From positions 128,533 through 192,532 of the forward strand of contig JBDRJF010000024.1 in assembly GCA_043815185.1 (NCBI GenBank): a stretch of DNA of 64,000 nucleotides, written 5' to 3'. The notes below the pieces were generated by a model. That model saw nothing but the letters and a program-made list of their open reading frames with translations, was not told the DNA's origin and made no database searches. The stretch's first letter is position 1. Each line of letters opens with the position of its first letter. Position numbers and translations under genes: made by a program. The DNA is from Candidatus Omnitrophota bacterium. GTDB taxonomy: Bacteria; Omnitrophota; Gorgyraeia; Duberdicusellales; 4484-171. Shown here piece by piece: positions 5,463-60,019 of this stretch.

Positions 5463-6590
5463 GTGGAAACAGAAGCATTTGCTATAGCCTTTAGTGAACG
5501 GCTCCAGGCAGAAGCGATTAAGGAAGTTTCCTTAAAAATAAAATTAATCTTTCCTAAAAAGATCGATTATCTGATTATTTTATCCACGCCTGATTATCAC
5601 CCTGCAAATATATTAAAGACCGTAAATCTTACTCTGAAACCAAGACGGATTTTAGGAATACAATCTCCCTTTTTAATCTTTGAAGATAAGCTAATCACAA
5701 AAGGCATTGTTGTCTGTTGCATAAACAAAGAAGGAGTTGAATTCACCGAAGCTTTCTCTAAAGCAACAGGCGCTCAAGAAATCGAATCTTTCCTGATTTC
5801 TTCATTCAAAAAGTTAAGAAGACAAGATTACGCTTTCTTCTCCTTTATCTCTTCTCAAATTGACCCCACTGCCTATTTAAGAGGAGTAAGGCTGGCTCTG
5901 GGTAGATTTTTTGAGCTCTTAGGGTGTGGCTTCACAAAGAAATATTCATATCATAACTCCCAGATCATAAATAATGCTCCTAATGAAGGATTAATGAATA
6001 TTGCCATAAAAGGACTGCGGGTACGTTCATTGAGGTTAGGGGGGTATGTGCCCTTGGGTAAACCCTTCACTATTACTAAAACCACTCCCAACCGAGATGT
6101 GATTATAGAAATAAACCACCAGCCGGCGATAAATATCTACCAACACTACCTGGAAGAAAAATTTGACCTCTTTATAAAAAACCACCTTTTTGCTTTCTAC
6201 CCCTTAGGAATCAGCACTGGGGGCTCTTTAAGGCTTATTAATATTCTTGACCGGTTGGAGGATGGATCTTTAATCTGTAGGGGCGAAGCAAGGGAGGGAG
6301 GGATCGGATATGTTATGTTCCTTGATGCTGCCGTTCCCTTAGAAAGGTTAAAAGACAAATTAGCCCCTCTAAGAAACAATAGACAAGGGCTAACTTTTGT
6401 TATAAACTCTTTAACAAGAAAAAAAACTTTGGGAGAGAGTGCTAAGCAGGAAATCGTTTCGATAAAGAAGACTTTGGGCGATAACTCTAAGGTGATTGGA
6501 CTATATACTGATTATTCTTTTGTTTCCGATAAAGAAACCGGAAACATTGATATCGAAACCGGCAATCTCCTCATAACTACGTGGGAATAA
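5463..6590 (+). CDS. FIST-domain sensory protein
   Basis: 375 aa with a GTG start 10 nt after AGGAG. Size and layout resemble FIST_N/FIST_C, and it sits directly upstream of a histidine kinase. Confidence 0.5.
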   Translation: METEAFAIAFSERLQAEAIKEVSLKIKLIFPKKIDYLIILSTPDYHPANILKTVNLTLKPRRILGIQSPFLIFEDKLITKGIVVCCINKEGVEFTEAFSKATGAQEIESFLISSFKKLRRQDYAFFSFISSQIDPTAYLRGVRLALGRFFELLGCGFTKKYSYHNSQIINNAPNEGLMNIAIKGLRVRSLRLGGYVPLGKPFTITKTTPNRDVIIEINHQPAINIYQHYLEEKFDLFIKNHLFAFYPLGISTGGSLRLINILDRLEDGSLICRGEAREGGIGYVMFLDAAVPLERLKDKLAPLRNNRQGLTFVINSLTRKKTLGESAKQEIVSIKKTLGDNSKVIGLYTDYSFVSDKETGNIDIETGNLLITTWE

Positions 6591-6591
6591 C

Positions 6592-8052
6592 ATGATTAAC
6601 AATTTATTATCACTTGGGCCCCTGGCTAATTTGGTGATTATATTGGCCGGCGTAGTCACATTTCTGGTCTTTTTCATTGCTAAGAAAATGAAAAATGTTG
6701 CTACTTTACGAAAGGAATTAAATCGCTCAAGAAAGGTAATCCAAGATTTGGATCAGCAGGCAAAATTGATTATAAAAAGTGACATGGAGCTAAAATTGTC
6801 GCAGCAAGAGATAGAGAACGAACTTAATAAATTGTCCTTGATAAAGAATTTGCTCATTTCCTCTATCTCCACCTTAGACAACGATAAACTCTTCTCGGCC
6901 ATAGATAAAGAAATTATAAATGCCCTGGGGTTTAAGAGAGGTTTGATCCTCGATTTTAATAGCTTACGAGAAAAGGTCAATATTGGCTTTGAGGCTCCTG
7001 ATGTAGAAATATTCAGGACAGTTTTTGAGAAAAAAAAGGAGTTATTAAAAGATGTCCGGTTCCTGCACCCGGATTCTGAAACTTATAAGAATTTATTTCC
7101 TTCAAGCAGGAGTAAAGATGTTCTTATCGCCCCGATAAAAACAAGAGAACTTATCTATGCTATATTTATAGTATCCGACCTTACTTTGCATGCTGAAATT
7201 CGCCAATCAGAAGAAGAAGCATTTTTAATCGTCTGTATGTATCTTAGCCAGTGCCTTGACAATATACAGCTGTTTGAAGATCTCTACCATACCAAGGATA
7301 ATCTGGAAAAGAAGATTAAAGAGCGAACTAACGAGTTAGTTAAAAGTTTGAGAGCAATTGAAGTTATCAGTAAAACAAAATCTGACTTCATCTCCAGCGT
7401 GTCTCACGAATTAAGAACTCCTCTTACCTCGGTGAAAGGATTTTCTTCCTTGCTAGTGGGTGAGAAATTTGGTAAATTACCTGTTGGAGCAATAGAAAGG
7501 TTAGCTAAGATTGATACCAACGTGGATAAACTCATGACTATTGTAAATACTCTCTTAGACATTTCCCGCATTGAATCAGGTAAGATGGAAGTAAAAATCG
7601 CACCATTTGAGATTACAAAATTGATTAAAGATGTAGCGGATTTGCTGAGTCCTCAAATAGAATCAAAAAAAATCGCTTTGACTTTCAGCCTCCCTGAAAG
7701 TCTAAATGTGTATATGGATAAAACTCTCATTGAAAGAGTCCTAATCAATCTTATAAATAATGCTTTAAAATTTACCTCCTCGGGAGGAGAAATAAAGCTA
7801 ACTTGTGCCCAGGAGGATAAACAGGCTCTTATTTCAGTAGCCGATACCGGTTGCGGTATGAGGGAAGGAGATCTGACAAAAGTATTCCAGGAGTTTTTTA
7901 GAGCCAGTAATCCTTCGATTACTAAGATTGAAGGAAGCGGTTTAGGGCTTTCTTTGGTGAAAAAAATTATCGATACACATAAAGAAAAAATATGGGCTGA
8001 ATCTAAACTGGGGAAAGGTACGACTTTCTATTTTACTTTAAGAGTAGCCTAA
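6592..8052 (+). CDS. Sensor histidine kinase (N-terminal TM, coiled coil, HisKA, HATPase_c)
   Basis: H-box SHELRTPLTSV, N-box NLINNALKFT, G1 DTGCGM, G2 GSGLGLSLV. Confidence 0.88.
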   Translation: MINNLLSLGPLANLVIILAGVVTFLVFFIAKKMKNVATLRKELNRSRKVIQDLDQQAKLIIKSDMELKLSQQEIENELNKLSLIKNLLISSISTLDNDKLFSAIDKEIINALGFKRGLILDFNSLREKVNIGFEAPDVEIFRTVFEKKKELLKDVRFLHPDSETYKNLFPSSRSKDVLIAPIKTRELIYAIFIVSDLTLHAEIRQSEEEAFLIVCMYLSQCLDNIQLFEDLYHTKDNLEKKIKERTNELVKSLRAIEVISKTKSDFISSVSHELRTPLTSVKGFSSLLVGEKFGKLPVGAIERLAKIDTNVDKLMTIVNTLLDISRIESGKMEVKIAPFEITKLIKDVADLLSPQIESKKIALTFSLPESLNVYMDKTLIERVLINLINNALKFTSSGGEIKLTCAQEDKQALISVADTGCGMREGDLTKVFQEFFRASNPSITKIEGSGLGLSLVKKIIDTHKEKIWAESKLGKGTTFYFTLRVA

Positions 8053-8983: not shown

Positions 8984-9058
8984 ATATAAAGGCTCGAGGA
9001 TAAAATTAAAAGTTGTTTTTATTCTTTGCCGCTTTTTTAATCTTTATCCTTGATATTT

Positions 9059-9336
9059 GCGAGGGTGGCGGAAACAGCTCTTGCGCAGCAAGACAATTGG
9101 TTATCAATAAAACAATTAGCTGTTCCCGCAATAGCTAAAAAGCTACAATAAAACTTTATCTAAGGCAGTAAGCTAAGCATAATAAATAAACTTTAATGCG
9201 AGGGTGGCGGAAACAGCTCTTGCGCAGCAAGATAGTTGCTTATTAATAAGGCGGCTAGTTGTTCCCGCAATGACTAACAGACTAAATTAAGACTTTATAG
9301 AAGATAACGAACTAAGTATAATACACAGACGTTAAT
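9059..9336 (+). repeat. Two tandem upstream modules (138 and 140 nt), each starting with the first 15 nt of tRNA-Leu(GAG)
   Basis: gcgagggtggcggaa occurs at 9059, at 9197 and as the tRNA 5' end at 9337. Both units continue aacagctcttgcgcagcaag...ag(c/t)tgttcccgcaat. Confidence 0.85.
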
Positions 9337-9420
9337 GCGAGGGTGGCGGAATTGGCAGACGCACTAGCTTGAGGGGCTAACGGTAGCGATACCGTAGGGG
9401 TTCAAGTCCCCTCCCTCGCA
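9337..9420 (+). tRNA. tRNA-Leu (anticodon GAG), no encoded CCA
   Basis: Hand-folded cloverleaf: acceptor gcgaggg/ccctcgc, anticodon loop ttGAGgg, long variable arm cggtagcgataccgt, T arm agggg-ttcaagt-cccct. Confidence 0.92.
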
Positions 9421-9564
9421 TAGTTTTATTTAATTAGAAAGTGACGGCGGACAAAAAAAGTCTGTGCTTTCGCATAAAATATCTTGGATCCAATAATAGC
9501 GGTTGAGGCTTAGCCTAAACCGGCTCGCCTTCGGCGAGATTGGATACAAGTCCTCTTCCTCGAA
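9421..9564 (+). repeat. tRNA-trailing structured module D1 (ends in a diverged copy of the tRNA-Leu 3' end)
   Basis: The 3' portion reads ggatccaat..cggttgaggcttagcctaaaccg..ctcgccttcggcgag..attggatac followed by caagtcctcttcctcgaa (3 mismatches to the tRNA 3' end), then CCA. Confidence 0.7.
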
Positions 9565-9580
9565 CCACAATGTACGGTAG

Positions 9581-10936
9581 ATGAAAAAACTCACTTTATT
9601 TCTGATAATTCTTGTATTTCCCACCATTGTAAATGCCGATGCAATTTACCTAAAGGGTGGCCAGAAAATAGAAGGAAAATTTTTAAATACAACAAGCGAG
9701 TATATAAAAATAGATTTTTATGGAGTAGAATTAACTTACTTCTTAGATGAAATAGATCATACAGATATGGATGAAAAACCGACTCAAGGTCATACTTCGG
9801 CTTTTGAGCGTAAAATAAAAGGGTTAAGTTGTACTACAATGGATGAGGTATTAGAACTTTCGGAAGAAGAAATAGATATAGCTACCGCACTTCTTATAAT
9901 ATCTAAGGAGTCTAATAATACCATAAATATCATAGATTATCGTAATGAAATTGATAGTATGGTATTAGAGTTATCTAGACGAATACGCGGCACGAAAGAT
10001 CCAAGAATGATTATAGAGACAATGAATTCCTATTTGTTCGATTCCATTGGATTCAAGCCAAGGATTTTAAAGGATTATGTCTCTGGAAGTAATCCGGAAA
10101 CCTCTTTTTTAAGTAATGTATTGGACAGAAAAGAAGGAGATTGTGAGGGTTTATCTGGTTTATATTTATCGCTCAGCGAAAGACTAACACTACCGATTTA
10201 CGGAGTGTCTTTACCCGCTCATAAGTTTGTTCGCTATACAGATGGCATAACTTCAATAAATATTGAAATGACGGATAGAGGGGAAGTCCACAGTGATGAA
10301 GAATATATAGAATATTATAATTTACCCGGAAAAACATCATTCAAAATTCAATCAAAAAAAGATTTTATTATAGATCATATTATAAAACTTGGCACTTTTT
10401 GGGGATATATAAAAAACCCAGATAAAGCCATTTTTTGGTTGGAGAAAGCTTTAGAGATAAATCCTCAAAGTGAACATGCTCATAATTCGCTGGGTCTCGC
10501 ATATAGAGAAAAGGGATTAATATCAGAAGCAATTTCGAAAATAAAAAAAGCTATAGAAATTAACTCTACTATAGCTGATTTTTACTATAATTTGGGTAGT
10601 ATATATGATAGAGAAGGGATGAAAGACGAGGCTATTGCAGAATATAACAAAGGGCTAAAAATAGCTCCTTCCCCTGCTATTTATTGCTTTCTAGGTAATA
10701 TATATGCTACAAAGGACATGTTGGATGAATCTATTATGCAATATAAATGCGCAATAGAACTCGACCCTAATTACGGTGATGCGCATTGTTTTATTGCTGA
10801 TTGTTACAGACGGAAGGGAGAATACAATCTTGCTTGGCAACATGCAAGAATTGCACAAAAATTAGGCCAGCCATTAGCTACATATGAGATAGAAGAACTA
10901 AATAAAGTTTCAAGCGAACCATCTTTAAAGGAATAA
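9581..10936 (+). CDS. Secreted transglutaminase-like / TPR-repeat protein
   Basis: Signal peptide MKKLTLFLIILVFPTIVNA, a Cys-core-like motif EGDCEGLSGLY, and C-terminal TPR repeats (AIFWLEKALEINP.., AISKIKKAIEIN.., AIAEYNKGLKIAP..). Confidence 0.6.
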   Translation: MKKLTLFLIILVFPTIVNADAIYLKGGQKIEGKFLNTTSEYIKIDFYGVELTYFLDEIDHTDMDEKPTQGHTSAFERKIKGLSCTTMDEVLELSEEEIDIATALLIISKESNNTINIIDYRNEIDSMVLELSRRIRGTKDPRMIIETMNSYLFDSIGFKPRILKDYVSGSNPETSFLSNVLDRKEGDCEGLSGLYLSLSERLTLPIYGVSLPAHKFVRYTDGITSINIEMTDRGEVHSDEEYIEYYNLPGKTSFKIQSKKDFIIDHIIKLGTFWGYIKNPDKAIFWLEKALEINPQSEHAHNSLGLAYREKGLISEAISKIKKAIEINSTIADFYYNLGSIYDREGMKDEAIAEYNKGLKIAPSPAIYCFLGNIYATKDMLDESIMQYKCAIELDPNYGDAHCFIADCYRRKGEYNLAWQHARIAQKLGQPLATYEIEELNKVSSEPSLKE

Positions 10937-11045
10937 AATAGTTACATTAAGGTAGGGGCATGACTACCTTAAATCAAAATAATTTGGTTGCTAAACCAAC
11001 CAAATAAAGTATTAATAAATTCGAAAAGAGTAAAAGGAGGGAAAA

Positions 11046-11477
11046 ATGGTTAAACGGCCGTATTTGATAAATTTTATCGCTTGGACCGAAATTATTTTTG
11101 GCTCAATAGGATGTTTAATTTTTGCGGGTTTAGCAGTATACAATCTAGTGGGGGGCTTTTTTGACCATACTTATGGTTACTGGGGCATAGCTTTTGGATT
11201 TATCTTTCTAATATCTGCCTTATTATTTCTTTTCCAAATGATTTGTGGACTAAGCATTTTTAAAGCTAAAAGATGGATTTTAACATTTGTTCTTGGTTTT
11301 TTTAAAATGCTTCTTTATTTAGCATGCATCGTTTTAAGCGTTTATTTAATATACATCAATAAGTATCTAAATAATCTTATCCTTTTTTGTGTATTGGTTC
11401 TGTTTATATTTTTAGCGTCAAGTATATATGTAGTTTGGTGGCTAAGCCGTCCTTTTGTAAAACAGCAATTTACATAA
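11046..11477 (+). CDS. Hypothetical integral membrane protein (4 TM)
   Basis: 143 aa and strongly hydrophobic, with AAGGAGG upstream. Confidence 0.45.
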   Translation: MVKRPYLINFIAWTEIIFGSIGCLIFAGLAVYNLVGGFFDHTYGYWGIAFGFIFLISALLFLFQMICGLSIFKAKRWILTFVLGFFKMLLYLACIVLSVYLIYINKYLNNLILFCVLVLFIFLASSIYVVWWLSRPFVKQQFT

Positions 11478-11525
11478 TCTATATCTAATAATTTTCTCTT
11501 ACTCTACTAAACTTTTAATGCTACC

Positions 11526-12283
11526 AGGGGACGGTTCTCGTTGCCCTATCCTTTACCCGCACAATAAGTTGTAAACACACCATTATAAATATCTAATTTA
11601 TTTGAAAGAAAAAGCCTTCTTTATACGTCTATTATAGAAAAGAGGAGGTTTTTATGCCACGCCAAGCCAGAGAAATTCCATCAGCAGGGTATCTACATAT
11701 AATAAGCCGAGGAAATAATAAAAGGAAGATCTTCCGCTACGAAAGGGATAAAAAGCAGTATTATCTCTATCTTAAAAATTTGAAGCAGCAAGAGAAGATT
11801 AATATTTGCCATTACTGCCTTATGGGTAATCACGTACATCTTCTTGTAGAGGTAAGGCAGGAAAGTAACCTATCCAGGTTTATGAAACGGATCAACCTTA
11901 AATATGTCTATTACTACCAAAGAAAATACACCTATTGTGGCCATCTCTGGCAGGATAGATTCCAATCAAAGATAATCAATAATGAGCCTTATCTGATACA
12001 ATGCGGTAAATACATAGAACTAAATCCTGTACGGGCCGGCATTGTTTCCTCTCCGGAAAATTACCCTTTCTCAAGCTATCACTACTATGGCGTTGGTCAA
12101 AAAGATTCACTTATTACCCCAAACCCTTTATATGAAGGCTTAAGTAAACAACAGGAAAAGAGACAGCATATATATAGAAATCTAATAATTGAGAAAGAAA
12201 ATGAGACAGAAGAAACAAAAAAATAATTGTCTGTTCATAACTAACTGGTGTATAATAAGTAAGGGGTGAGAGAACCGTCCCCT
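11526..12283. mobile_element. RAYT/IS200-like unit 1 bounded by 14-bp inverted repeats
   Basis: aggggacggttctc at 11526-11539 and its reverse complement gagaaccgtcccct at 12270-12283 flank the Y1 transposase gene. Confidence 0.6.
11654..12226 (+). CDS. IS200/IS605-family HUH Y1 transposase, REP-associated (RAYT)-like
   Basis: 190 aa. HUH motif GNHVHLLVEV; Tyr-motif region GKYIELNPVRAGIV; WQDRFQSKII. Confidence 0.75.
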   Translation: MPRQAREIPSAGYLHIISRGNNKRKIFRYERDKKQYYLYLKNLKQQEKINICHYCLMGNHVHLLVEVRQESNLSRFMKRINLKYVYYYQRKYTYCGHLWQDRFQSKIINNEPYLIQCGKYIELNPVRAGIVSSPENYPFSSYHYYGVGQKDSLITPNPLYEGLSKQQEKRQHIYRNLIIEKENETEETKK

Positions 12284-12297
12284 TCTGGAGGTTAAGT

Positions 12298-13062
12298 ATG
12301 GCAAAAATCACTTTCCTGGGAACTTCTTCAAGCATTCCTACAGACAAAAGGGACAATACTTCTTTTATTCTGGCTCATAAAAAACTTAGGCTTCTAATCG
12401 ACTGCCCCGGCTCGATAACACAGAAACTCTTAAAAATAGGGTTAGATTTTAGAAAAATAAAGGATATCGTTATCACCCACGAACACCCTGACCATATTTA
12501 CGGAATAATCTCACTCATTCATACCCAAGCTTACTTTAATGACAGCTTAAGAATATTTACTACCCCGCCTTCTCTAAAAATTATTAGGCAATTAATAAAG
12601 TTATTCGAATTGGATAAACCCCAGTATCCCAAGGTAAAGTATGTTAATGTATTTAAGAGAAAAAAATTCTTAAACAAGGAGGGGTTAAGAATATCGGCAA
12701 TAAGAAACAAACATATTCCCGGTTCTTTTGGGATAAGAGCCTCTTTCGCTAAAAAGTCCTTATTCTACTCTTCAGATACCTCATTCTCTAAAAGGATGCT
12801 GAAGGAAGCTGGCCAGACTAACTACCTTATCCATGATTGCACTGCTTCCTCCTCCTTTTTCCAAAAACACCCTTCTCTCTATAAAATGCATACTTCAGCC
12901 AAAGAGCTCAGCGATTACCTAAAGGCTTTCCTAAGGATAAAATTTATTCCAGTACATTTTTTACTTATTACCAAGAGTGAGGAGAAAAAAATAAGAAAGG
13001 AATTGAAATCTTTGGGCAGCAGGGTTATCTGGGCGGAAGATTTTAAAACAATTGTTCTTTAA
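12298..13062 (+). CDS. MBL-fold metallo-hydrolase, short RNase Z-like
   Basis: 254 aa. The N-terminus KITFLGTSSSIPTDKRDNTSF..LIDCPGS..ITHEHPDHIYG parallels RNase Z, but the protein is shorter, with no obvious flexible-arm insert. Confidence 0.55.
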   Translation: MAKITFLGTSSSIPTDKRDNTSFILAHKKLRLLIDCPGSITQKLLKIGLDFRKIKDIVITHEHPDHIYGIISLIHTQAYFNDSLRIFTTPPSLKIIRQLIKLFELDKPQYPKVKYVNVFKRKKFLNKEGLRISAIRNKHIPGSFGIRASFAKKSLFYSSDTSFSKRMLKEAGQTNYLIHDCTASSSFFQKHPSLYKMHTSAKELSDYLKAFLRIKFIPVHFLLITKSEEKKIRKELKSLGSRVIWAEDFKTIVL

Positions 13063-15405: not shown

Positions 15406-15628
15406 AATACTCTACCATAAGTTAAACAAAAAACCAATAAAAAACCCCACCTTTCATCCGTTACAGGCAATTGCTATCAATCCCTCGCTAGACAAGTGGG
15501 CACCGCATCATTACCGACCAAACGATAAGAGATATTGGCTCCCTATTAAGGGTGTTGGTTGTAGCACTCTTACCTGCTGACGCAATAGGCAGGGTTTATT
15601 TTCCCCTTGTTGTCTTCAGGTTAAACTT

Positions 15629-22333: not shown

Positions 22334-22479
22334 TTTTTACCTCCAGTAGTCTTTCATCCCATCTTTGCTTGCTCTTCTTGCGAAAACTTATTTTGCATAT
22401 TAATAACGATAATGGATGCAATGCGGCTTTTCCAGCCGCTCCGCCTGCGGCGGAGATTGTATACAGCTTAGTCTCCTTT

Positions 22480-35054: not shown

Positions 35055-35091
35055 AGCAGATTATTTTAGTTTAACAATGGGGGAAAATTGA
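35055..35091. repeat. 37-bp direct repeat, copy 1 (pyrK promoter region)
   Basis: agcagattattttagtttaacaatgggggaaaattga is identical to 35946-35982. Confidence 0.95.
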
Positions 35092-35098
35092 ATCTTCA

Positions 35099-35941
35099 CA
35101 GACGTCCTATTTGCACCCCATTGTAGGCATCCTACAAAGGTACATCCTACTGGTGATCAATCCAGGCTATTATATCTTAAAATCCTTATCTATAATATCT
35201 TCATACATTCTTGGCATCAAAACATATTGTCTGTAAAATTTTCTACATTCCTCAACATTGCTAAATGTTCGATATAAAGGATTCGGTGTAAGTGAGGTGT
35301 TTTGTCGTCCATAGGCATAGAAAGCATAACTTGACCATTTGTAATCTTTTAAAGCTTTAACAAGTTTTGCTCTTAAAGGATTTGTCTCTATGTACCGCGC
35401 GCACTCTAAGAGATATTCGTTTTTTGCTATGATTTTGCTCTTATATCTTCCTTGATAAAGATGGCCTGTGTATTGGTATTTTTGTTTGAAATAAAAACGA
35501 TAAGATTGGAATATCCCTTGTGTAAGCTTTGCCAATTCTTCTTTTTTGAATACTTTCATTAAAAGATGGACGTGGTTATCCATAAGGCAATAATTGTATA
35601 GCTCAAAGGAGTATTTGTCTTTATACTTCTTTATTAGCGCTATAAACCTCTGATAATCCTCAATTACCTTCAATAGCCGCTGGCCATTGTTTCCTTTTTG
35701 TATAATATGGTAGATTGCACCATCGTATATCTGTCTTTTCACCGTAGACATAACTCTCGCCTCCTTCTTTTCTAGGGTGCACCTTTGTAGGCGTCCTACT
35801 TTACCCCTAAAATAGGACGTCTGTTATGCTTCCTTATATAATAGACGTTAGAGGAAGCTGATTTCTTTCAATTATTTTAAGTTTTTTGGTAGGGGTGTCC
35901 CTTTGTAGGACGCCTACTTTACCCCTAAAATAGGACGTCTG
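35099..35941. mobile_element. RAYT/IS200-like unit 2 bounded by about 50-bp imperfect inverted ends with REP-like hairpins
   Basis: The left end is cagacgtcctattt..gtaggcatcctac. The right end is gtaggacgcctac..aaataggacgtctg, with a second right-end-like copy at about 35776-35823. Confidence 0.7.
35170..35751 (-). CDS. IS200/IS605-family HUH Y1 transposase, REP-associated (RAYT)-like
   Basis: 193 aa with HUH motif DNHVHLLMKV, LYQGRYKSKII and ARYIETNPLRAKLV. It is a paralog of 11654..12226. Confidence 0.75.
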   Translation of the reverse strand: MSTVKRQIYDGAIYHIIQKGNNGQRLLKVIEDYQRFIALIKKYKDKYSFELYNYCLMDNHVHLLMKVFKKEELAKLTQGIFQSYRFYFKQKYQYTGHLYQGRYKSKIIAKNEYLLECARYIETNPLRAKLVKALKDYKWSSYAFYAYGRQNTSLTPNPLYRTFSNVEECRKFYRQYVLMPRMYEDIIDKDFKI

Positions 35942-35945
35942 CATC

Positions 35946-35982
35946 AGCAGATTATTTTAGTTTAACAATGGGGGAAAATTGA
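35946..35982. repeat. 37-bp direct repeat, copy 2
   Basis: Identical to 35055-35091. Confidence 0.95.
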
Positions 35983-40801: not shown

Positions 40802-40939
40802 TGCCCCCGGCAGGAATCGTATGCAATCTGCCCCAGGCAGTTGAATTCGAAGAATTCACCCTATTGCATCCGATGGCCGCCATCACAATAAGTAAAAACC
40901 TTACCCAGCCACAGGCACCTATCGATTACTAAAAAACCG
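40802..40939 (-). repeat. tRNA-trailing structured module D5 (ends in a copy of the tRNA-Arg 3' end)
   Basis: The minus strand reads ggatgcaat..tgaattc-ttc-gaattca..ctgcc-tgg-ggcag..attgcatac cgattcctgccgggggca. Fifteen nt are identical to the tRNA, followed by 1 mismatch. Confidence 0.7.
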
Positions 40940-41011
40940 TGTCCCCGGCAGGAATCGAACCTGCATTTTTGGCTCCGGAGGCCAACGCTCTATCCGTTGA
41001 GCTACGGGGAC
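40940..41011 (-). tRNA. tRNA-Arg (anticodon CCG), no encoded CCA
   Basis: Reverse complement folds as gtccccg ta gctc aacggata gagc g ttggc ctCCGga gccaa aaat gcagg ttcgatt cctgc cggggac a. Confidence 0.9.
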
Positions 41012-46556: not shown

Positions 46557-48386
46557 CTATTCTACGGTAACTGATTTTGCTAGGTTCCGGGGTTGGTCTA
46601 TCTCGCAACGGCGATTCTTCGCTACAAAGTAAGCAAACAGCTGCAGGCTTACAGCAACTAAAAAAGGGCTTAAGTCCTGACTGGCAACTTGAGGAATATA
46701 AATTATTTGGCTGCTTAAGGTGCTGGCCTCCTGGTCATTATCACTTAATATAGTTAAAATCTTACCCTTCCTGGCCTTTACTTCCTGCATGTTAGAAACC
46801 ATTTTCTCATATAGTGCATCGGCAGGGGCAATGCAGACAACTGCCCGATACTCATCAATCAAAGCAATCGGGCCGTGTTTCATTTCGCCGGCAGGGTAAC
46901 CTTCAGCTGGAATGTAAGAGATCTCTTTTAACTTCAAAGCTCCTTCCAGAGCCGAAGGATAGTTTAGCCCGCGGCCTAAGAACAAAAAAGACCCAAACCG
47001 AGAAAACTTATTGGCAATTCTTCTGATCCTGGAACTGGTATCTAATATCTCCTGTAGATAGCGGGGAGTTTTCTTAAGACCGCTTAAGATTTTTTTTATC
47101 TTAGGCTCGCTTAAAGTCTTCTTCAACCGAACCAGGTAGAGAGAAAATAGATAAAGTGAGAAAACCTGGGCGGTATAAGCTTTGGTTGAGGCGACCCCGA
47201 TCTCTGGGCCGGCTAAGGTGGCGATAAAGCCGTTGCTTTCCTTAACTAAGCTTGAGCCTAAAACGTTACAGATGCTTAAAATCTTTGCTCCCTTCTTCTT
47301 GGCCTCTCTCACTGCGCCCAAAGTATCAGCAGTTTCACCGGATTGAGATATAGCCAGGAGTAGGTCGTTTTTGGCTAGTTTGAGTTTACGGTAACGAAAC
47401 TCCGAAGAAGTATCTATCTCAATATCAAGACCAGAATATTTTTCTAAAAAATATTTAGCCACATAACCGGCATGATAGGCTGTGCCACAGGCAACTATAA
47501 AGATTTTTTTTACCTTCTTGAAGTATTTATCGGAGATGTTAAGGCTGGGAAAACCTATTCGCTCTCCCTTGCAATATAAGGAAAGAATTTTCCGCAGCAC
47601 CCCGGGTTGCTCAAAAATTTCTTTAAGCATAAAGTGCTCATAACCCTTTTTCTCAGCCGCTTTAGCTTCTAACTTAACCTTCTCTATCGCTGGTTTTACT
47701 CTCTTATTCTGAAAACTGAGTATCCTTATCCCTTTTTTACTTAAAACTGCCATCTCTTCATCCTTTAAATAAACCACTCTCCGGGTAAAGGGTAATATCG
47801 CCAGAATATCAGAAGCTAAAAAATTACCTTCATCCCCCAAGCCAATGATTAGGGGGCTAGCTTTTCTCACCGCGACAAGCTTATCGGGTTCATCAGCCGA
47901 AACTATACCTAAGGCAAAAGATCCTTTTAGTTTACTCACTGCTTTTTGAACCGCATCCTCTAGAGACCTCTTATAAAACTTGGCAATTAAATGTACGATG
48001 ACCTCGCTATCAGTCTCGCTTAAAAACTTATATCCTTCTTTAATTAATTGAGTTTTTAAGGGAAGAAAGTTCTCAATAATCCCATTGTGGACAATAGCGA
48101 TCTTTCCCTGGCTGTCTAAGTGGGGATGAGCATTAATCTTATTGGGCCGGCCGTGAGTAGCCCAGCGGGTATGTAAAATACAGAGAGAAGTTTTGGCGTT
48201 TATTTTGCCCCTTAAATCTTCTGACAACCGCCTGATTCTACCGGGCCTTTTCCGAAGGAAAAGCCTGCTCTTATCCACACTGGCGATTCCGCAAGAATCA
48301 TACCCCCGGTATTCTAGACGGGATAAACCGGTTACTACCGCAGAAATCGGCACCCCTTTGCCGACATATCCAAAGATACCACACAT
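46557..48386 (-). CDS. glmS: Glutamine--fructose-6-phosphate aminotransferase
   Basis: The mature N-terminus is MCGIFGYVG (ATG at 48386, sharing 1 nt with the upstream stop, TAATG). SIS domains follow and the C-terminus is ..LAKSVTVE. Confidence 0.95.
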   Translation of the reverse strand: MCGIFGYVGKGVPISAVVTGLSRLEYRGYDSCGIASVDKSRLFLRKRPGRIRRLSEDLRGKINAKTSLCILHTRWATHGRPNKINAHPHLDSQGKIAIVHNGIIENFLPLKTQLIKEGYKFLSETDSEVIVHLIAKFYKRSLEDAVQKAVSKLKGSFALGIVSADEPDKLVAVRKASPLIIGLGDEGNFLASDILAILPFTRRVVYLKDEEMAVLSKKGIRILSFQNKRVKPAIEKVKLEAKAAEKKGYEHFMLKEIFEQPGVLRKILSLYCKGERIGFPSLNISDKYFKKVKKIFIVACGTAYHAGYVAKYFLEKYSGLDIEIDTSSEFRYRKLKLAKNDLLLAISQSGETADTLGAVREAKKKGAKILSICNVLGSSLVKESNGFIATLAGPEIGVASTKAYTAQVFSLYLFSLYLVRLKKTLSEPKIKKILSGLKKTPRYLQEILDTSSRIRRIANKFSRFGSFLFLGRGLNYPSALEGALKLKEISYIPAEGYPAGEMKHGPIALIDEYRAVVCIAPADALYEKMVSNMQEVKARKGKILTILSDNDQEASTLSSQIIYIPQVASQDLSPFLVAVSLQLFAYFVAKNRRCEIDQPRNLAKSVTVE

Positions 48387-48859
48387 TATTCCTGGCTCCT
48401 TTCTTCTGGTCTTTGGGGAGCAACAAAGCAACTCTCGACTTTTTTATTGGTAAAATAAAAAATAAGTATGCCAGGATAAATTATTTGCAAGATAGCCTGG
48501 TTAATCGATAAAGAATTAAATAAGGCTGTGACTCCGGTTAGAATAACCGTAAAAAAAGAAAAGTAAAGGGTAAGCCGCCGGCCCCACTCTTTTCTTAAAA
48601 GGATTCCTAACCCGGACAGTAAGAAGATTGTGGCGATAATTGCTTGTGATAGGATAATCACTTTAAATTGTGGGGTAGTTAAGGGGCCGCCGGAAATAAT
48701 CTTATTGAACTCACCGCGGAGAGCCTGGCTGGCTGAAGAACCCGGATTAAAGTAAACCGGTAAGAAGATGCCCAAAGAAAGCAAACCAAGGACGAAAAAA
48801 TTGAATCCTCCCAAAATTAAACTTCCCCAGGGCTGTTTTTTTCTTTTCTTCCTATCCAT
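48386..48859 (-). CDS. Hypothetical membrane protein (4 TM)
   Basis: 157 aa, hydrophobic, with no family I recognise. Confidence 0.4.
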   Translation of the reverse strand: MDRKKRKKQPWGSLILGGFNFFVLGLLSLGIFLPVYFNPGSSASQALRGEFNKIISGGPLTTPQFKVIILSQAIIATIFLLSGLGILLRKEWGRRLTLYFSFFTVILTGVTALFNSLSINQAILQIIYPGILIFYFTNKKVESCFVAPQRPEERSQE

Positions 48860-48871
48860 ATAAATAAAAAG

Positions 48872-49020
48872 CGACCCCAGCCGGATTTGTATGCCCTCTC
48901 CGACGAAGTCGGAGCCGGTTGAGGCTAAGCCTCAACCGCATATGCATACAAAATAAGACATTGGCTTTTGTCGCTACCCCTGAGTTTTAGCTGGATACTG
49001 AGCTTTAGCATTAAATAATA
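48872..49020 (-). repeat. tRNA-trailing structured module D4 (ends in a copy of the tRNA-Glu 3' end)
   Basis: The minus strand reads tgtatgc..cggttgaggcttagcctcaaccg..ctccgac-ttc-gtcggag..gcataca followed by caaatccggctggggtcg (18 nt identical to the tRNA). Confidence 0.72.
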
Positions 49021-49095
49021 CGACCCCAGCCGGATTTGAACCGGCGCCGTCGCCGTGAAAGGGCGATGTCCTGAACCGGGCTAGACGATGGGGTC
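49021..49095 (-). tRNA. tRNA-Glu (anticodon TTC), no encoded CCA
   Basis: Reverse complement folds as gacccca tc gtct agcccggttca ggac a tcgcc ctTTCac ggcga cggc gccgg ttcaaat ccggc tggggtc g. Confidence 0.9.
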
Positions 49096-49115
49096 GAAAG
49101 TGTTTCTTATTTTAG

Positions 49116-49123
49116 ATTATACA
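49116..49123 (-). promoter_or_regulatory. Extended -10 element (TGTATAAT) 20 nt upstream of tRNA-Glu
   Basis: The minus strand reads tgtataat ctaaaataagaaacactttc followed by the tRNA 5' end. Confidence 0.4.
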
Positions 49124-49151
49124 GTTAATTTGTCAACCAAACTTTCTTTTT

Positions 49152-58705: not shown

Positions 58706-58711
58706 ATACAG

Positions 58712-59184
58712 GTTTCCACGTGAAAACGGACAGGTTTCCACGTGAAAACGGACAGATTTTCACGTGAAAACGGAGAGGTTTCCACGTGAAAACACTTAAG
58801 TGGAAACATTCACTATAGCAACACAAAGAGTCCACAAGTCCAATTCTCAAAACGCAAAACAAGCCAGGCTTAACTAACCAAAATTAGGTAATTTTTTTGG
58901 TTATTTTCACGTGAAAACACAAAGAACTTGACAATCGCTCTTTTTTTTATTACAATTAGGTAAAGCTTCAGCCTTTGGCGCATAAACTAGTAGAATATTG
59001 CGAATCTAGTTGCTGGAGTAAATCACTAGCTGATATTAAAACAGGTGTGGAAACATTAATTTTGTCAATTGCTCTGAGGGTAAAGCGGTTTTCACGTGTC
59101 TCTCCCCTGAGAATAAAAGTACTGGGGAGATCCATGTGGAAACCTCTATCATTCCATAAGAGCACGAGGTTTTCACGTGAAAAC
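58712..59184. promoter_or_regulatory. Array of six 16-bp parS-like palindromes plus four half sites
   Basis: RTTTYCACGTGAAAAC occurs at 58712, 58734, 58756, 58778 (exact 22-bp spacing), 58903 and 59169; the last is the perfect palindrome GTTTTCACGTGAAAAC. Half sites lie at 58800, 59047, 59088 and 59136. Confidence 0.6.
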
Positions 59185-59206
59185 GCAAGAGCATTAATAA
59201 ACTAAA

Positions 59207-60019
59207 ATGGGCAAAATAATCGGCATTTGTAATCAAAAAGGTGGTACTGGCAAGACGACCACAGCGATTAATTTAAGCTCGTTTTTAGGCCTGGGGAATA
59301 AAAAAACTTTACTTATTGACATGGATCCTCAAGGTAATGCTACTTCCGGAGTAGGATTTGACAGCCAAGGAAAAAACTCTATTTACGATGTAATTATGGA
59401 CAAAGCTCTTTTGTCCGAAAGCATTTATCCTACTAAATGGCCGCAATTACAGCTTATCCCTTCAGACATTTCCCTTACCGGCGGAGAAGTTGAATTAGTC
59501 AATACCGAGAATAGAGAATTGCGGTTAAGTCAAAGGTTGGAGGAGATCAAGAATGATTTTTCCTACATTATTATTGATGCGCCGCCTTCTTTAGGCCTGC
59601 TTACGGTAAATGTCTTAGCCGCTTCGGATAGTTTGGTTATTCCGGTACAATGCGAATACTATGCTTTAGAGGGAGTTTCCAAATTAATCAATACTGTAGA
59701 GCTAATTCGTGAAAGATTAAATCCTTCATTAGAGATTGAAGGGGTTCTTCTCACCATGGCTGATTTTCGTACCCGGCTTACTTTGCAGGTGATAGAGGAG
59801 GTGCGAAGGTTTTTTCAGCAAAAAACACTTGATGTTATTGTACCTCGGAATATAAAACTTGCTGAGGCTCCTAGTTTTGGTAAGCCGATCTTTTTTTACG
59901 ATCCGGCTTGCGTGGGTGCTAAAGCCTACTTAAATTTAGCTCAAAAAATATTAAAGGAGAATATAGAACTTAACCAATTAGCAAGTCCGGTTGACAGAGC
60001 ACCTTCTCTCACCGGATAA
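59207..60019 (+). CDS. parA: Chromosome partitioning ATPase ParA/Soj
   Basis: 270 aa with the deviant Walker A NQKGGTGKTT. Confidence 0.92.
   Translation: MGKIIGICNQKGGTGKTTTAINLSSFLGLGNKKTLLIDMDPQGNATSGVGFDSQGKNSIYDVIMDKALLSESIYPTKWPQLQLIPSDISLTGGEVELVNTENRELRLSQRLEEIKNDFSYIIIDAPPSLGLLTVNVLAASDSLVIPVQCEYYALEGVSKLINTVELIRERLNPSLEIEGVLLTMADFRTRLTLQVIEEVRRFFQQKTLDVIVPRNIKLAEAPSFGKPIFFYDPACVGAKAYLNLAQKILKENIELNQLASPVDRAPSLTG

Follow-up and report, generated by a model that had tools for sequence, protein, structure and literature searches.

The window analysed here is a stretch of 64,000 nucleotides from an Omnitrophota bacterium, with a GC content of 40% and a GyrA protein for which our search returned only Omnitrophota relatives. 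On its minus strand it carries a gene for tRNA-Glu(UUC) that does not encode CCA, and between this gene and a small downstream ORF lies an inserted unit that is the subject of this analysis (Table 1). The predicted promoter of the tRNA-Glu gene is strong and is kept in alignments with relatives, and between it and the ORF neither a further promoter nor a terminator was predicted. There is no integrase in or beside the unit, whose neighbours are the small membrane ORF and housekeeping genes, gyrA and glmS among them. A preliminary description of the sequence had placed a module behind tRNA-Glu(UUC) on the minus strand, and this was borne out by both ARAGORN and Rfam; the closing helix and the ctccgacTTCGtcggag hairpin that it listed are likewise present. 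It had further stated that the last 18 nt of the module repeat the 3′ end of the tRNA, and indeed caaatccggctggggtcg is identical at 18 of 18 positions to C56-G73 of tRNA-Glu, the last 18 nt of the gene (49021-49038), which form the proximal copy of this direct repeat (repeat family D16); the two copies are spaced 149 nt apart. The distal copy stops 12 nt upstream of the ATG at 48859, again in agreement with that description, and the homologue of the 157-aa ORF in relatives starts 12-20 nt past the end of tRNA-Glu.

Table 1. Coordinates of the tRNA-Glu(UUC) locus and its unit, of the related units and of the Y1 transposase genes in the window.
Feature	Position	Strand	Basis or remark
tRNA-Glu(UUC)	49021-49095 (ends 49020/49021, 49095/49096)	minus	ARAGORN; Rfam tRNA, 60.8 bits
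Sigma-70-like promoter of tRNA-Glu, TTGACA-16-TAAAAT, 11/12	49109-49136	minus	prediction
Inserted unit, 149 nt = 131 nt of new sequence + 18-nt duplicate	48872-49020	minus	alignment with relatives
Glu unit, T-rich left end (tattatttaat...) + variable spacer, ~70 nt	48951-49020	minus	sequence
Glu unit, three-way junction: closing helix tgtatgc/gcataca + two hairpins	48888-48950	minus	fold z = -3.5; family covariation
Glu unit, hairpin 1, cggttgaggcttagcctcaaccg, REP-like palindrome	48916-48938	minus	sequence
Glu unit, hairpin 2, ctccgacTTCGtcggag, cUUCGg loop	48898-48914	minus	sequence
Distal copy of tRNA C56-G73, caaatccggctggggtcg, then original flank CTTTTTATTTATATGG	48872-48889	minus	alignment
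Downstream ORF, 157 aa, membrane-like	48386-48859	minus	ORF; no Pfam match
glmS, after the 157-aa ORF	46557-48431	minus	gene neighbourhood
Arg(CCG) unit, behind tRNA-Arg(CCG) 40940-41011	40802-40939	minus	different hairpins; 17/18 copy (D18); common to L193
Leu(GAG) unit, behind tRNA-Leu(GAG) 9337-9420	9421-9564	plus	hairpin 1 kept; degenerate copy 15/18, then original CCA
Leu(UAA) unit, behind tRNA-Leu(UAA) 63372-63457	63458-63597	plus	hairpin 1 with flipped loop; repeat family D6
Val(GAC) unit, behind tRNA-Val(GAC) 63641-63714	63715-63847	plus	different hairpins; repeat family D9
Sixth copy, rpmI-rplT spacer, no tRNA nearby	22350-22465	plus	antisense to operon; without tRNA-end copy
IS200-like Y1 (HUH) transposase gene	11654-12226	plus	PF01797, E = 1e-17; flanked by 14-nt inverted repeat
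Second Y1 transposase gene	35170-35751	minus	PF01797, E = 1e-12; flanked by GTAGG...CCTAC REP-type hairpins

The synteny of gyrB, gyrA and tRNA-Glu is kept in more than 40 Omnitrophota loci. GyrA identity to the window among the relatives that we compared ranges from 85 to 95%, with L001 at 95% and L002, L003 and L039 at 87%; L001, L193 and L198 are contigs of one genome, referred to below as the 95% relative. Alignments showed that the Glu unit is missing from L001, L002, L003 and L039, and also from L193-L197. In the first four of these loci tRNA-Glu directly precedes CTTTTTATTTATATGG, whereas in the window the same sequence comes after the distal copy, and the flank past the distal copy is identical to the L001 flank at 32 of 34 positions. 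A contrast between filled and empty sites was seen at four loci, namely Glu, Leu(UAA), Val(GAC) and Leu(GAG): in L066, L067 and L071 the Cys-Leu-Val-Asp cluster is compact and has neither the Leu(UAA) nor the Val(GAC) unit, and the Leu(GAG) unit is present in L198 and absent from L201-L203. The Arg(CCG) unit is common to the window and its 95% relative (L193), while the Glu unit is found in the window only; judging from these alignments, the units are of different ages at different loci.

The empty Leu(GAG) allele has the sequence ...CTCGCA-CCA-ttaaaac, and in the filled alleles the CCA is found next to the distal copy. The cassette is therefore a clean insertion with the discriminator base as the last position before it, and the gene that remains functional loses its encoded CCA, leaving the tRNAs that carry a unit without one. 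Consistent with this, in the window all five unit-bearing tRNAs lack CCA and the two complete unit-free tRNAs have it (Fisher P = 0.048). A duplication longer than 18 nt was sought in the window and none was found. The idea that the proximal trailer at Val(GAC) corresponds to the native trailer of L067 was discarded, the score lying within the background of unrelated T-rich trailers.

Units of this family lie behind five of the eight tRNA genes in the window (Leu-GAG, Arg-CCG, Glu-UUC, Leu-UAA and Val-GAC), so that the family is present at most tRNA genes there and not only at Glu and Leu. The distance from the end of the tRNA to its copy is 133-149 nt across the five units, and the repeat always starts at C56. 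The units have in common a junction core, GGATnCAAT ... AGATTGnATAC, in which four of the nine pairs of the closing helix show compensatory changes and a G-A opposition is conserved; none of 500 shuffles reached the observed covariation score. In four units, hairpin 2 carries its cUUCGg loop on the tRNA-sense strand. From these comparisons, the cassette begins with a T-rich left end, continues through a spacer that varies among units and closes with the conserved three-way junction, which ends in ...AGATTGnATAC(A/G); the hairpins within the junction are exchangeable, the Arg and Val units carrying others. We also considered that the spacer might be a decayed tRNA 5′ half, and rejected this since it has no similarity to the tRNA 5′ half.

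The sixth copy in the window (22350-22465) is homologous to the tRNA-linked units over its full length, the T-rich left part included, and full-length homologues away from tRNAs were also found in the metagenome loci L049, L051, L056 and L062. Flanking repeats at these five tRNA-free copies were not above background, and the apparent target duplications at L062 and at window position 22350 were dismissed as matching no better than mismatched pairings. In all five, the left end lies less than about 20 nt from the ribosome-binding site and start codon of an oppositely oriented gene. Plasmid and phage collections contained no match to the unit, the hairpin and the motif of a second, type B family (described below) were not found in viral contigs, and a 14-mer from the end of the unit gave chance matches only among the viral contigs; on these null searches, an origin from a virus, plasmid or phage was rejected. 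Retroposition from a mature tRNA is unlikely as well, given that the copies lack CCA and that the UUCG loops are on the tRNA-sense strand. No known RNA family in Rfam matches the units in the window or at four related loci, and we found no account of such units in Omnitrophota in the literature.

The preliminary description had drawn attention to a hairpin shared with both Leu modules, and we recovered it at 9500-9522 with one mismatch and at 63534-63556 with a T/A flip of the loop. All three occurrences of hairpin 1 in the window are inside tRNA units, and none of 100 shuffles gave any match. In public metagenome contigs, however, hairpin 1 occurs at 16 loci, nearly all of them without a nearby tRNA, and by the criterion set in the preliminary description the proposed link between the hairpin and tRNA genes fails. 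Hairpin 1 is instead a generic, exchangeable REP-like palindrome, and the link to tRNAs is a property of the whole unit, equally true of units with other hairpins. In L064, five copies of hairpin 1 lie behind successive genes within 7.7 kb, and those at 5946 and 6706 bracket an ORF (5986-6696) that scores 22.7 against PF01797, below the cut-off of 23, and is 25-31% identical to both Y1_Tnp genes of the window. The latter are flanked by their own palindromes and not by hairpin 1. The cassette around the second of them (35055-35982) has inverted ends CAGACGTCCTATTT and AAATAGGACGTCTG and lies between the two copies of a 37-nt direct repeat without mismatches (35055-35091 and 35946-35982); a direct duplication of this kind is not expected for IS200-type elements.

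Rates of change were compared between the window and its 95% relative at the Arg and Leu(GAG) units, taking as neutral baselines 18% at gyrA four-fold sites for Arg and 11% at the four-fold sites of the neighbouring response-regulator gene for Leu(GAG). The spacer had changed at 11 of 68 positions in the Arg unit and at 10 of 63 in the Leu(GAG) unit (16% in each) and evolves neutrally in both. The three-way junction had a single change among 53 positions at Arg, located in a loop (P = 3e-4 against 18%), and 5 among 62 at Leu(GAG); its conservation is significant at Arg only and at Leu(GAG) is merely below the level of the spacer. In the tRNA-end copy we counted 1 change in 17 positions at Arg and 6 in 18 at Leu(GAG), the positions differing by lineage. 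These comparisons indicate that the three-way junction is kept by purifying selection in situ. Since the junction is conserved while the copy appears to decay neutrally, the copy is best read as an unconstrained insertion scar, neither a mimic of the tRNA nor a guide. It had been suggested in the preliminary description that the module adopts the terminal sequence of its host tRNA, but the decay of the copy is at least as fast as neutral change, and beyond it comes the original flank, which at tRNA-Leu(GAG) includes the original CCA; the copy is therefore a displaced or duplicated target segment and not a functional adopted end. The duplex energy between the copy and the body of the unit was no better than with shuffled bodies (z from -2.4 to +1.1). 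An acceptor/T-arm minihelix was also tried, in that single folds paired the copy with an upstream strand, yet this pairing was not significant against shuffles.

Repeats of other kinds were also observed at tRNA genes. Both tRNA-Leu genes are preceded by mirror-image units, at 9058-9335 (two tandem 139-nt units) and at 63234-63370, which consist, in this order, of a 13-16-nt copy of the tRNA 5′ end that reaches to the D-loop, a covarying ACAGCT.../...AGCTGT junction, TTCCCGCA and a spacer of about 65 nt that contains a promoter-like TATAAT. The relatives L198, L201 and L204 have one such unit, in which the 5′ copy is perfectly conserved, unlike the 3′ copies, and the mirror unit before Leu(UAA) is missing from L066, L067 and L071. 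A further family, type B, which is unrelated to the units of the window, was found behind tRNA-Glu in L016, L021, L023, L047, L007 and L041. A type B unit is a copy of the T-arm that is split in the T-loop by two hairpins, and the 139-nt units form tandem arrays. The positions considered for this family are 6695-7027 and 7217-7929 in L047, 5590-5852 in L007 and 5625-5840 in L012. In L047, 2.4 tandem copies are followed by an HTH and Fic/Doc-like gene pair, and in L007 and L041 a further hairpin pair sits within the type B copy, between its T-stem part and its acceptor part.

Taken together, we consider it probable (at about 60%) that the unit behind tRNA-Glu is one copy of a family of non-autonomous mobile cassettes of ~115-130 nt that insert at tRNA genes and are co-transcribed with them as a trailer. 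Of the earlier proposal of a mobile or gene-converting element, the mobile part thus stands, in view of the presence and absence of units among relatives, the covarying core and the locus-specific 3′ end, and gene conversion is not needed. The cassette sits right after the discriminator base, with a 16-18-nt duplicate of the tRNA (C56/A58 to N73) bounding its far side, and because this duplicate runs from the T-loop to N73 the tRNA gene stays whole. The distal duplicate retains the original flank, together with the original CCA if one was encoded, and then decays neutrally. The unit is probably transcribed from the tRNA promoter as a 3′ trailer, because it has no promoter or terminator of its own and the downstream ORF of relatives starts a few bases past the tRNA. 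RNase Z would cut after G73 and CCA would then be added, and the junction may persist either as a free RNA resembling the RtT RNA of E. coli or within the ORF-glmS message as its 5′ leader, one of which would be the function under selection in situ. The cUUCGg loops on the tRNA-sense strand are compatible with such a role as RNA.

No mobilising enzyme linked to the ends of the units was found in the window. A simple staggered cut is not supported, because the five tRNA-free copies show no significant flanking repeat. We tentatively entertain, as a possible but doubtful mechanism, that a Y1/HUH transposase acting in trans recognises the hairpins and nicks single-stranded DNA at the T-loop of the T-arm hairpin, and the Y1 gene at 11654-12226 is a candidate for this trans-acting enzyme. 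This model is favoured because the tRNA-free copies are without repeats, because the right end ...ACA/ACG resembles the T-loop TTCA/TTCG, and because Y1 genes are present; according to it, the element would carry a replacement for A58-N73, which would not be a classical staggered-cut duplication. Known IS200/IS605 elements make no duplication. The arrays in L047, L007 and L012 end in partial units, and no single model explains these. A broader and rather more doubtful idea is that a new class of elements homes to the elbow loops of tRNAs, the T-loop at about position 56-58 and, for the mirror family, the D-loop at about 13-16. A replacement tRNA end, with which the 5′ family would also supply a promoter, would keep the gene, HUH enzymes would act on the single-stranded T-arm, the E. 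coli RtT units and the Omnitrophota type B family would stem from the same process, and the host would have co-opted the junction RNA.

An unlikely alternative takes the units for miniature integrative elements or attachment-site relics, which would have arisen from crossing over in the T-loop by a P4-like tyrosine integrase and would represent a minimal attP or the remnant of an island deletion. A repeat that extends from the T-loop to the end of the tRNA, with the original flank past the distal copy, is the classical signature of integration, and in both this repeat and the reconstituted tRNA, as well as in the displaced end with its native flank, the units resemble P4-type attL/attR sites. 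The flanks of tRNA genes are also true integration hot spots in this phylum: a large serine recombinase adjoins tRNA-Asp in L067, a toxin-antitoxin cassette lies behind the tRNA-Glu array in L047, and a 2.7-kb islet lies behind tRNA-Leu(GAG) in the window; tandem arrays occur as well. However, no integrase is found in or next to any unit, five tRNAs would require five specificities, and homologous tRNA-free copies exist that have no repeats. Neither a constant unit size of ~139 nt nor a selected junction would be expected for relics of deletion, and in the mirror units it is the 5′ end of the tRNA that is replaced, at the D-loop, something that no known class of integrase does. The 131-nt payload without an integrase, the many tRNA specificities, the 5′-end mirror family and the tRNA-free copies likewise set the units of the window apart from P4-type sites.

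That the unit is instead an immobile, host-encoded functional RNA, such as a signal for tRNA processing or termination or an RtT-like small RNA, which arose by local duplication of the tRNA 3′ region and whose copy is needed for recognition by tRNA enzymes, seems to us quite unlikely. The conserved and covarying three-way junction and the UUCG loops on the sense strand would fit this explanation, as would the 3′ end of E. coli RtT, which is a tRNA-end copy, and the folds that pair the copy with the upstream strand. Against it stand the homology of the core at five unrelated tRNAs and at tRNA-free sites, the clean presence or absence among relatives, the decay of the copy at or above the neutral rate, the complementarity of the copy to the unit, which is no better than in shuffles, and the dissimilarity of the spacer to the tRNA 5′ half. 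A guide-RNA-like module, in which a scaffold with a 16-18-nt 3′ guide matching the tRNA gene would direct a TnpB/Cas12-type nuclease or an RNA-guided transposase to tRNA genes, has the right layout and size (scaffold, then 3′ guide, ~130 + 16-18 nt), an invariant GTTC(A/G) just before the target in the tRNA and IS200/IS605-type Y1 genes in its favour, but this reading is highly improbable and was rejected, as the would-be guide decays, varying at 6 of 18 positions between two close lineages, the intact tRNA at the same locus would be self-targeted, TnpB, IscB and Cas genes were not found in the flanks examined, and Rfam gave no match.

The closest known system to the mobile tRNA-trailer cassettes that we favour is RtT of E. 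coli, which has the same architecture, although the units of the window are not members of its family. In E. coli, 178-bp units lie behind tyrV (three units) and between tyrT and tyrV (one), each ending in AATCCTTCCCCCACCACCA, which corresponds to A58-A76 of tRNA-Tyr, and Rfam RF00391 (RtT) matches all four. The E. coli tyrT repeats, each of which closes with the final 19 bases of tRNA-Tyr, were already known in the late 1970s, and we know of no explanation of their origin to date. The 3′ end of the annotated rttR RNA is the end of the first tRNA-Tyr copy. According to PMC3318445, which cites Bosl and Kersten 1991 for rttR, this RNA is a product of one repeat unit. Both kinds of unit lie directly 3′ of a tRNA in the same orientation, end in a copy of the terminal tRNA segment that begins in the T-loop, contain GC-rich hairpins and can form tandem arrays with a fractional last unit; the E. 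coli unit also holds a copy of the 5′ strand of the T-stem, AAGGTTCGA, as do the type B units of Omnitrophota. In the window, RF00391 had no match that reached the gathering score, and four related loci gave none at E <= 1; neither sequence nor structure homology is detectable between the two. E. coli RtT occurs at a single tRNA locus and has CCA within the unit, whereas the family of the window is found at at least five different tRNAs, lacks CCA, has tRNA-free copies, is accompanied by a mirrored 5′ family and has recently been gained and lost.

An RtT-like architecture is seen here with gain and loss as recent as between genomes that are 5% apart in GyrA. The presence of the units at five tRNAs and the separation of a conserved junction from a decaying copy make the origin and the function of tRNA trailers testable. 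The units remove the encoded CCA from the tRNA gene, as at Leu(GAG), and would provide downstream genes with structured leaders.

The units also share features with REP/BIME sequences and their RAYT transposases, in that hairpin 1 is a short perfect palindrome, is dispersed, mostly after genes, and brackets a Y1-like gene in L064, in that the two Y1_Tnp genes of the window have flanking palindromes, and in that the unit, as in a BIME, combines hairpins into a mosaic. They differ from these in that the whole unit goes with tRNA ends and has a tRNA-derived repeat as its boundary, which is foreign to REP/BIME sequences, in that hairpin 1 is replaceable, and in that the Y1 match in L064 is just under the Pfam threshold. 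With MITEs and PATEs they share small size, lack of coding capacity, structure, multiple copies and a presence that varies among lineages, but only their tRNA sites show a flanking repeat, whose left edge always falls on the same tRNA position. They lack terminal inverted repeats, the unit ends TA(G/C)TTTTAT... and ...AGATTGnATACA not being inverted copies of each other. A PATE of the IS200/IS605 type would be inserted 3′ of a fixed tetra- or pentanucleotide and would make no duplication; here most left flanks finish with ...CA, and the repeat at tRNA sites would then have to be borne by the element.

Several other features of these loci were noted. Between the tRNA-Leu(GAG) unit and a metallo-beta-lactamase gene lies the islet of about 2.7 kb (9581-12290), which encodes a TPR/transglutaminase-like protein, a 143-aa membrane protein and the Y1 transposase with its inverted repeat AGGGGACGGTTCTC. 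The metallo-beta-lactamase gene (12298-13062, plus strand) has the corresponding fold and an RNase Z-like N-terminus and is a candidate RNase Z gene. In relatives, the metallo-beta-lactamase gene starts ~10-15 nt past tRNA-Leu(GAG) or its unit; in L198, L201-L203 and L204 the tRNA or unit directly precedes the conserved downstream gene, which is the metallo-beta-lactamase gene in L198 and L201-L203. In L067, a gene for the 570-aa large serine recombinase (11228-12977) adjoins or overlaps the 3′ end of tRNA-Asp in the Cys-Leu-Val-Asp cluster, and an integrated element probably starts there. The contigs of L066, L068-L070 and L001/L193 end less than ~100 nt from rpoZ or within the tRNA cluster behind gmk-rpoZ; tRNA-linked repeats appear to break metagenome assemblies at tRNA clusters.

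Elsewhere, the GyrA homologues P0045, P0074, P0079 and P0118 are ~1250 aa long and contain intein and homing-endonuclease domains. A 6S RNA is encoded in the window at 15440-15598 on the minus strand (RF00013, 49.5 bits, just over the gathering score). Near dnaA, between a YidC-family gene and a ParA-like gene (59207-60019), there are four tandem 22-nt repeats at 58708-58815 and single copies at 58904-58922 and 59167-59188, with the palindrome TTTCACGTGAAAA, which we take to resemble parS.
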